Origin: Ramlibacter sp.
Lineage (GTDB): Bacteria > Pseudomonadota > Gammaproteobacteria > Burkholderiales > Burkholderiaceae_C
Direction: 5' to 3'
Length of the DNA stretch: 64,000 bases
Assembly: GCA_041905405.1 (NCBI GenBank)
Contig: JAYRLC010000023.1
Span: 15-64,014, forward strand
Part shown: one piece after another, positions 23,161-27,501 of the stretch
Numbering within the stretch: the first letter of the stretch is position 1
Layout: each line of letters opens with the position of its first letter
Notes under the pieces: generated by a model
Seen by the model: only the letters and a program-made list of their open reading frames with translations
The model's database searches: none
Told to the model about the DNA's origin: nothing
Made by a program: the position numbers and the translations under genes

Positions 23161-26100
23161 TCACCCCTTTGGCGCGTCGCCCGCGGCCTGCTTGAGTGCG
23201 TCCAGCAGCTTCTTCTTTTCTGCCGCGGCGGCTGCGGCGTCTTTGAGGGGGGCTGCGGCTGCGGGGTCGGCGCCGGCCTGGGCCAGCGCGTCTTGCAGGG
23301 CATCGGCCGACGGCAGCCCGCCCGGCGCGGTCGCGGGGACAGGGGCAGGCGCGGGTGTGGGCGCGGGCGGCGTTGCGGCGCCCGCCGGGGGCGCGACTGG
23401 CGGGGCCGGCGTGTTGACCGCAGGCGCGGATGCGGGCGAGGCCGGGGCCGCGCCGGGAGTGCTGCCGGCAGGTGCGGCGGCAGGTTGGCCCGGCGCCGCA
23501 GGCGTATCCGCCGGCGGGGCGGGGCCGGTCGCCGGTGCGGGGGCACGGGTGGGTGCAGGTGCAGTGGCAGGCGCAGGCGCAGGCGCAGGCGCAGGCGCAG
23601 GCGCGGACGTCGGTGTAGATGCTGGTGCCGGCCCGGGGGCGGAGGGCGTCGGCGCGCTGCTGTCCGCGCCAATGGGTGGCGGGGACGCTGCAGGTGACGT
23701 GCCGGCGGCCGGCGCGTCGGCCGCACTGTCGGCCGGTGTGGGCGGCGCAGATTCCGGCGCAGGCGCAGGCTCTGGTGCGGGCGCGGGGGCTGGCGATGAC
23801 GCCGGCGACGTGGCGGGCGCGGCGCCATCGGCAGCCGCGGGTGAGGGGGCCGGCGTTTGTGCGGCGGAGGGGGCTGGCGCTGGACTGGCGCCTGCGGGGG
23901 CTGGTGCCTGCGCGTCCGCCGATGCGGGGGCGGGTGCCGGCGACGGTGTGGGCGCTGCTGCCGGTGCCGGTGCATCGGCCTGCTTCGTGTCCTGCGCCGC
24001 ATCCTTGGCGCTGTCCTTCGATTCGTCCTTCTTCGGCGGTTCGCCACCGTTCTTCACCACCTCGGCCGCCACGATGGACTCGGCGCTCACCACGTCGGCG
24101 CGGGCTGCGTTGGTCTGGCTCTGCGCGGCCTCGGCCTTGTCGCGCGCCGCGTCGACGGCCTGCTGGGCTTCGTCGCGTTTGGCGGTGACTTCGCGCTCGG
24201 CGCGGGCGGTTTCTTCCGCCATGGCCTTGTCGGCTGCCACCACCTCTTCGCGCAGCGCGTCGGCCTGCGCCGCCACGGCGGCGAGCTGCTCGTCCATCTC
24301 TTTCTGCACGCGCTGGGCCTCGTCGGCGGGGGGCGCGATGGCTTTTTGCGCGTCTTCCAGCACCTGTGCAAACTGGCGGCCCACGTCGGCCAGCTGTTCG
24401 CGCTGGGCCGTGCCGGCGGCGGCCGCGGCGTTGGCCTGCGCGCTGGCGTTGTCCTGCGCGGCCTGCAGGTCGCCCTGCAGCGGGTCGGCCGCCGTGGCCA
24501 GCGCCGCCAGAGCGGCCAGCGCCGCCTGCGCGCGATCGGCCGCCGCCTGGCCGGCGGATTCGAAGTCGCCCTTGAGCGCCGCGGCGCTGTCGGCAGCGCC
24601 CTGCACAGCGCTGCCCGCCGCTTCGAGCGCGGCGGCCACGTCGGCCTGGAGGGCCTGCAGTTCACCCGCCAGCGCATCGGCGCGGCCCTGTGCCTGCTGC
24701 GCGGTCGCTTCAATGTCGCTCACCACGCCGCTGAAGTCCTGTACCGCTTCGGCCAATGGCCCCGCGGCACCCTGCGCCGCCGCGCTGGCCTGGGCCGTCG
24801 CCTGTGCTGCGGCGTTGGCCAGTTTGGCTTCGCCCTGGGCAATGAGTTCGTCCAGCCTGGCGCGCGCCTGCGTCACCAGCGCCATGAGTTTGTCCTTGAG
24901 CTCGTCCATCAGCGACTTGAGCTTGACGGCCGGCTCGCGCACCTTGGCCTGCAGTTCGGTGACCTTGCCGCGCAGCAGCGCGATCTTGTCCTTGACCTGG
25001 GCCACCGGCACGCGCATCTGCGCCTGGGCGTCGTCAATGGTCTGCACCACGCGGGCTTCGGCCGTTTCCACCTGGGTGCGCACCGGGATGACGGCGCGCG
25101 CCTTGACCGCGAGCACCTGCGCCTTGACCAGCTCCACCTTCTCGACGGGCTGCACCAGCGCCACGAAGGTGTCGCGTGCCTGGCGTACCTGCGCGACGAG
25201 CTTGGGTGGCTGGGCCTTGACCTCATCGGCCGCCTCATGCAGCTTGGCGGACGCCTGGTCCATCTGGTCCTTGGCGGTCTGCAGCGCGGCGCGCACCTGG
25301 TCCAGCACGGCCATGACCTTGTCGATGGCGGCGCGCACCTGGGCGATGGCCTGCTGCAGTGCCGCACGCAGTTGCTCCACGACGGTCAGCGCCTGGTCCA
25401 GCAGGCCGGTGGCGGTGGCGCCCGCGGAGCGCACGGCGCTGCGCGCGCCCGCAATCGTCACCTGGATGCCGGGGATGGACGCCTTCACGCCCATGAACAG
25501 CGCGCGCGCCGCCACCAGCGCCGGTGCGCGCGTGATGTATTTGGTGCACACGGCGATCGCGTTGTCGCAGCGCCCATCGGCCTGGTCCAGCTCGCGGCTG
25601 GCCTGCGCCAGCGTCGCGTCGGCGCGCTCCACAAAGTCCTCGATGCGGGTCTTGATGTCCTCGATCAGCGCCTTGGCCTCGTCGATCTTCTGTTCGACCG
25701 GCTCGAAGCGGTCGGGCAGCACCTGCAGCTTGGCCTTGAGCTCGTCGATGCCGGCGATCACCTCGTCCAGCGACGTTTTCATGAGGTCGATCGCATCGTC
25801 CACGCCCTGCACGGCGGCGTCGATGACGTTGTTGACCGCGGTGACGATGGTGTCCAGCCGGCTGATCTGGGTTTCCACCGTCTGCAGGATGCCCTCGATC
25901 GCCTGGCCCACGGCGTCGATGCGGGCCGCCACGCCGTCGATGGCGGCTTCCACCGCGACGATGGGCGCGACCACCTGCAGCGCGATCTCGTGCGCGCGGC
26001 CCTTGAAGCCGTCCACCTGTGCCATCAGGGCGTCGATCTCCTGTTCGAGCGCGCCGATGGCCGTGTCCACGCGCTGGATCACCGCGTCCACCGAGCCGGC

Positions 26101-26724: not shown

Positions 26725-27501
26725 TCAAAGTCCGTCCAGCGTGCGCGTGACGTCGCCCGTGGCCGCCGACATGGCCGATTCGATGTCGGGAATTTTGGAC
26801 GGCGTGGGCGCGAGCGACACCGGGGCGAGGTTGATCTCGGCCAGCGTCAGGTCGATCTGCTCCAGCGACTGCATGATTTCGGGCAGCACCTCGGCGCCTT
26901 CGATCTGCACTTCTTCCAGCACGGGCAGCAGCGGCGGAACCGGCGGCTTGATGGGCGCCACGGCCAGCGCCAGTGCCGGCGCCGCCATGGCCGGTGGCGC
27001 GGGCACGGCGGGCAGGCCCGAGGTCTGCGCGGGCAGCGGGCTTTCCGTCACCACGACCAGCCCCTGCGCCATGGCCGCAGCCAGCGCCTGGATCACGCGG
27101 TCGTCGGTGTGGGCGAACACCCAGGTGGACGGCTCCAGCCGCTGCAGCGCCAGGCGCAGTTCGCGACAGGCGGCAGGGTCCTGGCGCCACCAGCGCAGGT
27201 ACTGCGCGGCGTCGTCGGCGCGCCAGAAGGCGCGGCGCGTGGCGGCGGATGGTGTTGCCTGCGGTCCTGTCTGCGGCGGCGGCGCGGGCGGTGGCGTGGG
27301 CGCACCGCCCATCATGCGAAACGGGGGGGCGCCTGTGGGCGGTGGGGATGCCGCGGGGGGCGGCGAGGCGCCCGGTGCAGCGGTGCCCGCAGGTGCCGGC
27401 CCTTCGGCGGGCGTCGCGGGCACCTGCGTCGGCGCGCCCAGCCGGTCGTACAGCCACACGCGCTGCGTGCCGCGCTGCAGCCGCGCCAGCGGCAGGCTCA
27501 C
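26725..27501 (-). CDS. 258-aa protein of unknown function with an internal Pro/Ala linker
   Basis: The GTG at 27501 overlaps the MFS stop (GTGA). High GC3 in this frame. It ends 12 nt before the coiled-coil gene. The start is uncertain. Confidence 0.5.
   Translation of the reverse strand: MSLPLARLQRGTQRVWLYDRLGAPTQVPATPAEGPAPAGTAAPGASPPPAASPPPTGAPPFRMMGGAPTPPPAPPPQTGPQATPSAATRRAFWRADDAAQYLRWWRQDPAACRELRLALQRLEPSTWVFAHTDDRVIQALAAAMAQGLVVVTESPLPAQTSGLPAVPAPPAMAAPALALAVAPIKPPVPPLLPVLEEVQIEGAEVLPEIMQSLEQIDLTLAEINLAPVSLAPTPSKIPDIESAMSAATGDVTRTLDGL

Follow-up and report, generated by a model that had tools for sequence, protein, structure and literature searches.

[quoted passage not shown] The reading that we favor, though only tentatively, is that the large protein is a T6SS substrate and the small protein its dedicated chaperone/adaptor. 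The features of the locus are listed in Table 1; "the window" is the whole 64-kb stretch of DNA that was analyzed.

Table 1. Features of the two-gene module and the adjoining transporter gene (window coordinates)
Feature	Position	Strand	Evidence
Large gene, 1183 aa	23161..26712	-	ORF listing; GC3; 38-68% identity over ~900 aa to neighbours of small-protein homologues
C-terminal helix, residues 1150-1176	23185..23265	-	AF2 helix, pLDDT 62-77; conserved motif
Predicted disordered spacer, residues 894-1135, P/A/S/T-rich in window copy	23308..24033	-	pLDDT 32-37; composition
Rod helix 3, residues 650-887, ends in conserved ARADVVSAESIVAAEVVKxGGEP	24052..24765	-	AF2; alignment A2
Rod helix 2, residues 399-642; conserved prolines 502, 522, 543, 569, 594	24787..25518	-	AF2; proline conservation
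Conserved tip, residues 374-431, ELDQADxRCDNAIAVCTKYITRAPALVAARALFMGVKASIPGI; Cys 382 and 389; turn 393-398	25420..25593	-	A2, A3 consensus, AF2
Rod helix 1, residues 161-392	25537..26232	-	AF2 unbroken helix, pLDDT 78-91; hydrophobic periodicity 3.55
Conserved N-terminus M[QK]FV[TS]KAxTAIxxGA.. and shorter helices, residues 1-157	26242..26712	-	A2; AF2 helices 2-59, 74-121, 137-157
Small partner gene, 258 aa, GTG start overlapping MFS stop	26725..27501	-	ORF and junction sequences; 78 homologues, none named; always directly upstream of large gene
Most conserved segment of small protein, residues 189-258, PLLPxLEEVQIEGAEVLPEIxQSLEQIDL...SLxPxPSK..., two helices	26728..26937	-	Invariant/near-invariant A1 columns
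Compact alpha/beta core, residues 86-156, FWRADDAxxYLRFW...LAQGALxxTES, predicted to pack with N-terminal hairpin	27034..27246	-	AF2 pLDDT 86-97
Variable P/A-rich loop, residues 21-85, missing from many homologues	27247..27441	-	Gapped, variable in A1; pLDDT ~50
N-terminal motif MSxPLAxLRRxxxxVWLHD, residues 1-20, predicted beta-hairpin	27442..27501	-	Alignment A1; AF2 strands 6-10, 13-19, pLDDT >90
MFS transporter, OFA/lactate-transporter-like; lineage-specific neighbour, no universal part	27498..28802	-	Pfam MFS_1, NCBIfam

Two Real Genes and Their Neighborhood

Both open reading frames are present exactly as an earlier note on this DNA had described them, with the 258-aa reading inside the listed ORF 26725..27501(-). 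The junctions also agree with that account: the GTG of the small gene overlaps the MFS stop codon (gcGTGAgc), and its TGA lies 12 nt ahead of the ATG of the large gene. The GTG start is supported by the alignment, since homologues begin at the same MSxPLAxLRR, and on a near-identical contig gene callers give the same 258-aa product. The GC3 of the large gene (0.87) and its dN/dS against orthologues (0.11–0.28) therefore identify real genes rather than GC-rich chance ORFs; both genes are under purifying selection, and both are functional in the window's clade. The opposite-strand ORFs of 1443 and 1251 aa are artefacts.

The large-protein family is tiny (64 representatives among 1.84 billion proteins) and patchy in distribution, and the pair was found in Comamonadaceae, Oxalobacteraceae, and Gemmatimonadota. 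The proposal that the two genes form a conserved module is borne out in other genomes: the small gene lies directly upstream of the large one in all 49 loci first fetched, and the order recurs in L050 and L051 (56 loci in total, 39 at species level). Cultured carriers include Duganella sp. BJB476, D. hordei R1, Janthinobacterium sp. FT58W, Ramlibacter albus GTP1, and Polaromonas sp. UC242_47, and an intact pair occurs in at least nine Polaromonas-labelled loci.

The flanking genes in the window are those reported before, namely a PIN and MazE/AbrB-like (vapBC) pair on the upstream side and, 24 nt downstream, a Zeta_toxin/AAA_33-like kinase. Both are insertions unrelated to the pair, because neither is present at L001, a syntenic locus of Ramlibacter, where different genes, one with a TIR domain, lie downstream of the pair.

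The coupling to the MFS transporter that the earlier note proposed is a real linkage, but a lineage-specific one: an orthologous MFS gene (60–92% identity) is adjacent in 14 of the 56 loci and absent from the other 42. The start/stop overlap at GTGA is shared by the window and all Ramlibacter/Caenimonas loci, where the MFS gene lies upstream, while in a second clade it lies 4–33 nt (L026, L133) or 1–2 kb (L008, L028) downstream, so that the linkage persists in two gene orders. These observations would fit a module in which pair and transporter act together, the pair serving for instance as a cytoplasmic regulator or anchor of the transporter. We consider this very improbable, however, as the MFS gene is missing from the Polaromonas clade, from every T6SS-linked clade, and from all basal clades, L003 has the pair and PhoD without it, and neither protein shows any hint of transporter binding.

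Predicted Architecture of the Two Proteins

As described previously, the large protein has no Trp and two Cys, and it has a single Tyr. Residues 1–895 are rich in A, V, Q, L, and D, and residues 896–1140 comprise 35.5% Ala, 29.8% Pro, 9.4% Ser, and 7.3% Thr, before the C-terminal end (...AAEKKKLLDALKQAAGDAPKG). There is also no convincing TM segment, in line with the earlier note, as the top 19-residue Kyte-Doolittle value (1.83) falls within an amphipathic A/V helix. Three helices, each some 235 residues long, are predicted by AlphaFold; they most likely fold into an antiparallel bundle, giving a rod about 35 nm long. The antiparallel packing is suggested by the equal helix lengths and was read without coordinates from a model with a pTM of only 0.36. 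Conservation peaks at the first turn, which joins helices 1 and 2 and includes both Cys, and the tip around it holds the densest run of invariant columns in alignment A2. The spacers of homologues consist instead of GA repeats or of acidic or A/T/D-rich tracts, and range from 200 to about 1000 aa. The C-terminal helix carries a motif, [LF]-L-[DE]-x-[LI]-K-x-A (LLDALK at residues 1169–1174), followed by a P-rich end; the motif is kept from Ramlibacter to Gemmatimonadota, and the helix looks like a docking peptide.

In the small protein, the T6SS-adjacent clade has its own version of the N-terminal motif (MLHPLxSLWRH), and the core has no fold match in PDB or BFVD and no profile match. The two C-terminal helices (residues 192–223 and 240–257) are predicted with moderate pLDDT, which fits a segment needing a partner. 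We propose these helices as a candidate binding site for the rod, whose conserved N-terminal helices would most likely be the region bound.

Relation to Characterized Families

Neither protein belongs to any characterized family, as the earlier note had suspected: searches of Pfam, NCBIfam, PHROGs, PADLOC, and PDB matched no curated family. The small protein matched nothing in Pfam, NCBIfam, PADLOC, or PHROG, even with E-values as high as 1 allowed, and had no profile match to the known T6SS adaptor/chaperone families (DUF4123/Tap-1, DUF1795/Eag, and DUF2169). All profile matches of the large protein are to coiled-coil or structural proteins. The matches above cut-off to Baculo_PEP_C (PF04513; 49.4 bits vs. 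38) and DUF1664 (PF07889; 43.2 bits vs. 34.6) cover about 100 and 60 residues, respectively, of the 890-residue helical region; both families are also matched by unrelated coiled-coil proteins, and we treat these matches as compositional. Pfam and NCBIfam gave no Tss or Tag family match for the proteins of the window, L040, or L005, no match of the window protein to Rod_CreS, DivIVA, or FimV, and no effector marker or toxin domain (MIX, FIX, RIX, PAAR, Rhs, or enzymatic) in the rod, the tails, or the long C-terminal extensions. The large protein is non-enzymatic.

Several known proteins resemble the rod in part. An SMC/Rad50-type ATPase was rejected, since matches reached at most 45 bits against cut-offs of 300–1000 and involved coiled-coil parts only, with no SMC_N or AAA match above threshold in Pfam. 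Amphipathic helices are shared with ApoA-I, ApoE, apolipophorin-III, and the phasins, and rod helix 2, with prolines every 20–26 residues, is the region of ApoA-I-type profile matches (E ~1e-6; A3 profile positions ~520–735). However, the Pfam Apolipoprotein A1/A4/E score (PF01442) is 38.7 bits against a gathering cut-off of 90, and no locus has a lipid- or PHA-related context. ZorA of the Zorya anti-phage system was matched by PADLOC (39 bits) along its long helical tail only, and the window copy has toxin-antitoxin genes as neighbors, but the locus has neither a MotA/ExbB channel domain nor ZorB-D genes. The best Foldseek match was the UmbC stalk of the Streptomyces umbrella toxin particles (PDB 8w20_A; E 2.9e-5, probability 0.93), which is likewise a very long antiparallel coiled coil, with an antagonistic function. 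With TM-scores of 0.07–0.11 and an rmsd of 81 Å, this likeness is generic to long coiled coils; moreover, no C-terminal toxin domain was found in the rod, no sign of the ALF repeats or lectin partner genes of UmbC was noticed, and UmbC, as far as we know, comes from another phylum and takes another export route.

Association With T6SS Gene Clusters

Ten of the 39 species-level loci directly adjoin T6SS genes, in four arrangements and across two phyla, and they include most of the basal branches of the tree. In the first, the pair precedes tssB-tssC-hcp-tssE-tssF (L009 and L040–L044; Duganella, Janthinobacterium, and Ramlibacter albus); in the second, it is divergent from tssB (L046 and L049); in the third, from clpV-vgrG-MORN-DUF4280-tssK in Gemmatimonadota (L029 and L036); and in the fourth, it is convergent with the clpV-vgrG-MORN-DUF4280-tssK operon (L005/L006). 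Because the T6SS-linked clades are basal, the family was ancestrally embedded at the edges of T6SS gene clusters. The window's Ramlibacter clade is derived, the pair having been relocated from a T6SS cluster to behind the MFS gene. T6SS genes are absent from the whole 64-kb window and, in the window's Ramlibacter clade as well as in the Polaromonas and PhoD-context clades, from the 10 kb on either side of the pair. Among the options that the earlier note had left side by side, this linkage favors, short of proof, a secretion-associated coiled-coil protein over a phasin or a cytoskeletal protein.

The pair behaves like cargo in several respects. It is not present throughout the T6SS subtype that it accompanies: among 10 closely related clusters, chosen for a TssB identity of 78% or more and 5.7 kb or more of DNA upstream, only two (L050 and L051) carry it, and the other genomes may still have a copy at another site. 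The rod evolves faster than the machine, being 46–48% identical where TssB/TssC are about 90% identical. The pair sits at cluster edges, adjoining housekeeping ABC-transporter genes, and has crossed between phyla along with vgrG and DUF4280. The absence of an enzymatic domain and of a conserved downstream (immunity) gene across the loci examined also points this way, as does an EF/CyaA/ExoY-type cyclase toxin gene beside the pair in L005; such toxins act in eukaryotic cells.

In T6SS effector-adaptor pairs (VasX/VasW and those with Tap-1/DUF4123, Eag/DUF1795, or DUF2169 adaptors), a small gene likewise lies directly upstream of one for a protein of more than 1000 aa, and these pairs too are found at or near T6SS clusters or as orphans, are patchy among related clusters, evolve fast, and are horizontally mobile. 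In the reading favored here, the small protein would be the dedicated chaperone/adaptor of the rod, and the rod the exported substrate. The shape of the rod and its frequent location away from vgrG/PAAR genes hint that it could travel along or within the Hcp tube instead of on the spike, and its target might be one that requires no producer immunity gene, such as a eukaryotic cell or a membrane. The pair differs from effector-adaptor pairs in having no homology to their families, in lacking an immunity gene as well as any MIX, PAAR, Rhs, or toxin domain, in the large protein being a pure helical rod with a disordered tail, and in that its secretion is putative. Against the substrate reading stand the missing effector marker, toxin domain, and adaptor family, the clades without nearby T6SS genes, and the recurrent MFS linkage, which it leaves unexplained; to our knowledge, a rigid rod with a long disordered tail has no counterpart among described T6SS cargo.

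Scaffold or Tape Measure?

Alternatively, the rod might be a non-secreted T6SS accessory that stays in the producer cytoplasm as a scaffold or tether, its tip binding one T6SS part while the C-terminal helix, on a leash of 90–360 nm contour length, docks elsewhere (candidates are the ClpV N-domain or the membrane), thereby modulating machine assembly, positioning, or recycling. We regard this as less likely than the substrate reading. The pair directly adjoins tssB or clpV, and it has neither a toxin domain nor an immunity gene. Its C-terminal LLDALK/LLDQLK loosely resembles the ClpV-binding helix of TssC, which reads LLDRIV/LLDKIV in the linked clusters and LLDEIM/LLDEII in the literature on its recognition by the ClpV N-domain. 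However, the sixth position of the motif is Lys rather than a hydrophobic residue, and the T6SS-adjacent Oxalobacteraceae copies are weaker (FKDAIPP). A conserved tip combined with a tethered terminal peptide is also the familiar signaling layout of chemoreceptors (MCPs), whose long A/V/I/T/Q/D-rich antiparallel rod is most conserved at its hairpin tip and whose flexible tail ends in a docking pentapeptide; the large protein gives weak profile matches to MCP chains (E ~1e-4), but has no MCPsignal, TM, or HAMP domain, has three helices rather than a two-helix hairpin, and has a spacer 10–30 times longer. Further, related T6SS clusters usually lack the pair, so it is not needed for that machine, the rod evolves much faster than core genes, and orphan copies far from T6SS genes would be unusual for accessory parts.

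A T6SS-independent cytoplasmic scaffold (cytoskeletal, polar-organizer, or membrane-associated rod) that lies beside T6SS clusters by happenstance in some lineages, and works alone or with other partners in Ramlibacter and Polaromonas, appears a little less probable again. T6SS genes are missing within 10 kb of the pair in at least 25 species-level loci, and Polaromonas, which is listed among the genera with few-to-no T6SS core genes (PMC11481896), keeps the intact pair under purifying selection; the latter also weighs against the substrate reading. The large protein is acidic and combines a disordered region with a conserved peptide at its C-terminus, features reminiscent of hub proteins, and the exclusively coiled-coil/structural profile matches agree with such a role. 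Nevertheless, four independent adjacency types in two phyla are very unlikely by chance, given that T6SS clusters make up an estimated ~1% of a genome at most, and yet 10 of the 39 loci adjoin one. The T6SS-linked clades branch basally, which points to an ancestral link, and a tiny, patchy family is unlike housekeeping cytoskeletal proteins.

The order of a small gene followed by one for a very long helical protein with few aromatics, associated with a contractile tail-like machine, recalls the tail assembly chaperone and tape measure of phages. That the pair is a remnant of such phage or tailocin genes is hardly credible: the matches to PHROG 305 (tail length tape measure; E 4.7e-5) and to a PDB tape-measure chain (E 0.21) are weak and compositional, phage genes are absent from all contexts examined, the loci are chromosomal and syntenic, and the small protein has no BFVD fold match and no frameshifted chaperone form. 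A functional parallel within a canonical T6SS is improbable but less far-fetched. The rod, at an estimated ~2.5 nm, would be thin enough for the ~4 nm Hcp lumen and might span about eight Hcp rings over its ~35 nm as a tape-measure-like cargo, loaded by a chaperone acting like a phage tail assembly chaperone, while its tethered C-terminal helix docks on a component of the machine, for instance the ClpV N-domain. We know of no tape measure in T6SSs, and the pair, unlike a tape measure, is optional for the linked T6SS type. If true, this would represent a new T6SS substrate class and a new mode of machine loading.

Implications

The T6SS cargo and accessory proteins described to date comprise enzymes, pore-formers, Rhs cages, and small Hcp-bound toxins. 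Relative to these, the family shared by Burkholderiales and Gemmatimonadota would add a non-enzymatic rod with a predicted length of about 35 nm, a disordered leash that runs to hundreds of residues, and a putative terminal docking helix. The rod is always paired with a dedicated small protein, for whose fold no relative could be detected. The family is small and has cultured carriers, and the predictions are clear and testable. If secreted, the rod would be a new type of payload, possibly with a new loading route; if non-secreted, it would be a new optional machine part, or a new bacterial scaffold recruited by T6SS clusters.

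The two genes and their family

The ORFs, their junctions and the composition of the large protein are as the earlier note had described them, in agreement with the ORF table, the junction sequences and our residue counts. The GTG of the small gene overlaps the stop codon of the MFS gene (gcGTGAgc), 12 nt lie between its TGA and the ATG of the large gene, and 24 nt separate the large-gene stop from the start of a gene for a zeta-toxin/AAA_33-like kinase. No convincing terminator was seen within the MFS-small-large stretch, and no sigma-54 promoter was found 5' of the small gene in any locus compared. 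Both ORFs are true genes rather than chance ORFs of GC-rich DNA, because GC3 is 0.87, small-protein homologues share the start MSxPLAxLRR, and the large (rod) protein has a dN/dS of 0.11-0.28 against its orthologues. Two ORFs opposite the pair on the (+) strand (23192-27523, 1443 aa; 23857-27612, 1251 aa) were rejected as artefacts of GC-rich, Ala-codon-rich sequence.

Features of the window and of the large protein
Feature	Position	Strand	Basis or remark
Large gene, 1183-aa ORF	23161-26712	(-)	ORF table
Small gene, 258-aa reading within a longer listed ORF	26725-27501	(-)	ORF table
YefM antitoxin (PF02604)/YoeB toxin (PF06769) pair	20424-20962	(+)	Pfam
Zeta-like kinase	22618-23136		flank of module
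MazE-like/PIN pair	28742-29381		flank of module
Codons of C382 and C389, large gene	25546-25569		
Hybrid response-regulator/PAS kinase	35542-37851		next after 2109-aa kinase
2109-aa histidine kinase, ~ten PAS domains	38303-44632	(-)	PAS_9, 456 bits, 10 stretches
734-aa SpecificRecomb protein (site-specific recombinase)	50768-52972	(-)	full-length match to PF10136, 754 bits
Rod helix 1	residues 161-392		AF2
Rod helix 2, kink at 521	residues 399-642		AF2
Rod helix 3	residues 650-887		AF2

Searches of Pfam, NCBIfam, PADLOC and PHROGs with the large protein gave coiled-coil-type matches only, namely Baculo_PEP_C (49 bits), DUF1664 (43 bits) and Apolipoprotein (39 bits, cut-off 90) in Pfam, together with SMC, ZorA-tail and tape-measure matches. 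Baculo_PEP_C and DUF1664, both above threshold, span 60-100 residues and were treated as compositional because unrelated coiled-coil proteins match the same families. The PADLOC matches to the tails of ZorA, LmuB and JetC were rejected as compositional, as was the PHROG tape-measure match, and we regard descent of the pair from a phage tape-measure gene as hardly credible. In PDB sequence and profile searches the rod returned generic helical bundles only (designed bundles, ApoA-I, spike HR1 and MCPs). Nothing matched the small protein in these searches or in the four family databases, distant members of the pair have no NCBIfam model either, and no profile similarity was found between the small and the large protein. 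Family signature peptides appeared in no paper in a literature search, and the plasmid collection held no homologue of the pair. The earlier statement that neither protein can be assigned to a known family is thus borne out by the database searches, and the pair is uncharacterised.

Word-index searches with residues 1-900 and 300-620 of the large protein yielded nothing useful because low-complexity candidates crowded the list, and the family was recovered through the neighbours of small-protein homologues, an exhaustive phmmer search and a genome pattern scan. The small-protein homologues (n = 78, all unnamed) come from Ramlibacter, Polaromonas and metagenomes, and in every neighbourhood examined the gene 3' of the small gene encodes a protein of 1170-1310 aa, 25-68% identical to the large protein of the window over ~900 residues. 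Among 1.84 billion representatives, phmmer found only 64 matches (~20 below 1e-30), the weaker and more distant of which are generic coiled-coil proteins and were not accepted as relatives. Scanning 185,579 species genomes gave 39 loci, distributed over Comamonadaceae (Ramlibacter, Caenimonas, Polaromonas, Xylophilus and Limnohabitans), Oxalobacteraceae (Duganella and Janthinobacterium) and MAGs of Gemmatimonadota/Longimicrobiales. By tblastn, the small gene lies upstream of the large one on the same strand in 49/49 loci, a conservation as neighbours that upholds the proposed two-gene module. Two nearly identical, Polaromonas-like copies in MAGs labelled Candidatus Kapabacteria and Asaia bogorensis (L016 and L024) are probably on mis-binned contigs, and a 144-aa small-protein homologue in a eukaryote protein set (P0069, eukprot) probably reflects bacterial contamination or a protist-associated bacterium.

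Architecture of the two proteins

In an AF2 model built with 24 sequences and read beside the homologue alignment, the N-terminal beta-hairpin (6-19) and residues 88-155 of the small protein form a single compact alpha/beta domain (pLDDT above 90), split by a variable P/A loop that is missing in many homologues. A second P/A linker follows the domain, and after it comes the most conserved segment (PLLPxLEEVQIEGAEVLPEIxQSLEQIDL...SLxPxPSK...), which is predicted with moderate confidence as two helices. The fold had no match in PDB or BFVD.

The large protein has no Trp, two Cys and one Tyr. Its residues 1-895 are A/V/Q/L/D-rich, residues 896-1140 consist of 35.5% Ala, 29.8% Pro, 9.4% Ser and 7.3% Thr, and its C-terminal end reads ...EKKKLLDALKQAAGDAPKG. 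The AF2 model (27 sequences; pLDDT 75-90 in the helical part, pTM 0.36) begins with shorter helices that extend to residue 157 and continues with three near-equal helices, a disordered stretch at 894-1133 (pLDDT 32-37) and a terminal helix at 1150-1176. Because the three helices match in length and the hydrophobic periodicity is 3.5-3.55, we infer that they would pack as an antiparallel three-helix rod of ~35 nm. Foldseek retrieved long coiled coils only (UmbC 8w20_A, E 2.9e-5, then MukB, SMC arms and PrgA), with TM-scores of 0.12 or less.

Conservation in the rod is densest around its first turn (ELDQADxRCDNAIAVCTKYITRAPALVAARALFMGVKASIPGI). The only two Cys, C382 and C389, are invariant family-wide and stand seven residues apart on one helix immediately before this turn; a disulfide between them is out of reach within a single helix, so they may bind metal, have a redox role or form an intermolecular bond. 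Conserved prolines stand at 20-26-residue intervals in helix 2, and the helical part has a conserved end (ARADVVSAESIVAAEVVKxGGEP). The spacer beyond it is free to vary in composition (PA in the window, GA repeats in the homologous loci L003 and L008, acidic in L045 and L048) and in length, up to ~1000 residues in L041 and L044, whose long C-terminal extensions (proteins of 1951 and 1993 aa) consist of low-complexity sequence with no toxin or other domain. By contrast, the C-terminal motif [LF]-L-[DE]-x-[LI]-K-x-A and a P-rich end are kept from Ramlibacter through Gemmatimonadota, which suggests a spacer plus docking peptide.

Association with T6SS

The key contextual result, which is not visible from the window itself, is adjacency to T6SS genes, found directly in 10/39 species-level loci and in four arrangements. 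In L009 and L040-L044 (Duganella sp. BJB476, D. hordei, Janthinobacterium sp. FT58W and Ramlibacter albus), tssB-tssC-hcp-tssE-tssF come after the pair and share its strand. The pair is divergent from tssB in L046 and L049, is divergent from clpV-vgrG-MORN-DUF4280-...-tssK in L029 and L036 (Gemmatimonadota), and is convergent with the latter operon in L005/L006, with a cyclase toxin gene on the other side. That gene (L005 8510-9694 (-), L006 4433-5617 (-)), divergent from the pair and adjoining the T6SS cluster, encodes a 394-aa protein with a PF03497 Anthrax_toxA domain (EF/CyaA/ExoY-type cyclase toxin family), possibly an anti-eukaryotic T6SS effector. In a neighbour-joining tree most of the basal branches contain T6SS-adjacent members, and the clade of the window is derived.

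The pair is not a core T6SS component, because it is carried by only two (L050 and L051) of ten clusters related to the linked ones (TssB identity of 78% or more, with 5.7 kb or more of DNA upstream), and because the rod diverges faster than TssB and TssC (46-48% against ~90% identity between L009 and L040-L042). Four pair-less clusters (L059, L062, L064 and L082) have instead a divergent ~1100-aa gene upstream of tssB, which we take as tssM by its size and position only. In Oxalobacteraceae, the SBP_bac_3 and 222-aa genes beside the pair are amino-acid ABC transporter parts rather than module members, and the pair therefore marks the edge of the T6SS cluster.

The locus in the window and the MFS gene

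The gene order in the window is PgpA - CinA - [MazE-like/PIN] - MFS - small - large - [zeta-like kinase] - SnoaL - hydrolase - [YoeB/YefM] - Glu_synthase-like. The syntenic locus L001 (a Ramlibacter MAG) shares this backbone and lacks all three bracketed toxin-type insertions, so the vapBC and kinase genes are insertions, and the site downstream of the pair is a variable defence or toxin-antitoxin islet. In L001 the kinase position (14638-18563) is occupied by a TIR-domain gene (PF10137 CAP12-PCTIR_TIR) along with three genes that carry no annotation.

The interpretation in the earlier note is supported in part: the module is real, but the coupling to an MFS transporter proposed there did not hold in general. 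An orthologous MFS gene adjoins the pair in 14/56 loci, a lineage-specific link that is seen in two gene orders. In the Ramlibacter/Caenimonas clade the MFS gene overlaps the pair from the upstream side; elsewhere it lies downstream (directly, 4-33 nt, in L026 and L133; 1-2 kb away in L008 and L028). The link is missing from Polaromonas and all T6SS-linked clades. A function of the pair coupled to the transporter is accordingly very improbable.

In the PhoD-context clade (L003, L008, L027, L028 and L133), a gene for a 203-224-aa FHA-domain protein is always present 3.5-9 kb upstream of the pair, followed by an unannotated ~190-250-aa gene; L003 and L133 have two DUF5985 genes in between. In two Polaromonas loci (L010 7876-9817, L025 7130-9194), an OmpR-type response regulator and a HAMP histidine kinase, possibly a regulator of the pair, lie directly 5' of it on the same strand.

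Possible function

The reading that explains most observations, and which we tentatively prefer, casts the pair as a T6SS substrate and its dedicated chaperone/adaptor. It accounts for the strict pairing, the cluster-edge position, the patchy distribution among closely related T6SS clusters, the rapid evolution, the transfer between phyla along with vgrG and DUF4280, the existence of orphan copies and the lack of an immunity gene. The small protein would then be the chaperone/adaptor of the rod, and the rod the exported substrate. We speculate that it might be carried with the Hcp tube and not on the spike, as suggested by its shape and by a vgrG/PAAR gene frequently not being nearby. One caveat is that, to our knowledge, no described T6SS cargo resembles the rod.

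Alternatively, the rod could be a non-secreted accessory tether of T6SS, which is possible but doubtful. There is a loose likeness between its C-terminal helix (LLDxLK) and the TssC helix that binds ClpV (LLDEIM/LLDRIV); however, 4/6 positions agree, the likeness is poorer in the T6SS-adjacent Oxalobacteraceae, and the motif is therefore kept solely as a weak lead. A T6SS-independent scaffold is unlikely given the adjacency found elsewhere in the family, although the caveats to the substrate reading bear on it: the clade of the window shows no T6SS link, with no T6SS genes among the window ORFs scanned, and the Polaromonas pair is under purifying selection despite few-to-no T6SS core genes being reported in that genus (PMC11481896).

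Taken together, the pair is real and uncharacterised, and it is probably a T6SS-associated pair, cargo or accessory, whose rod-and-leash architecture is unprecedented.
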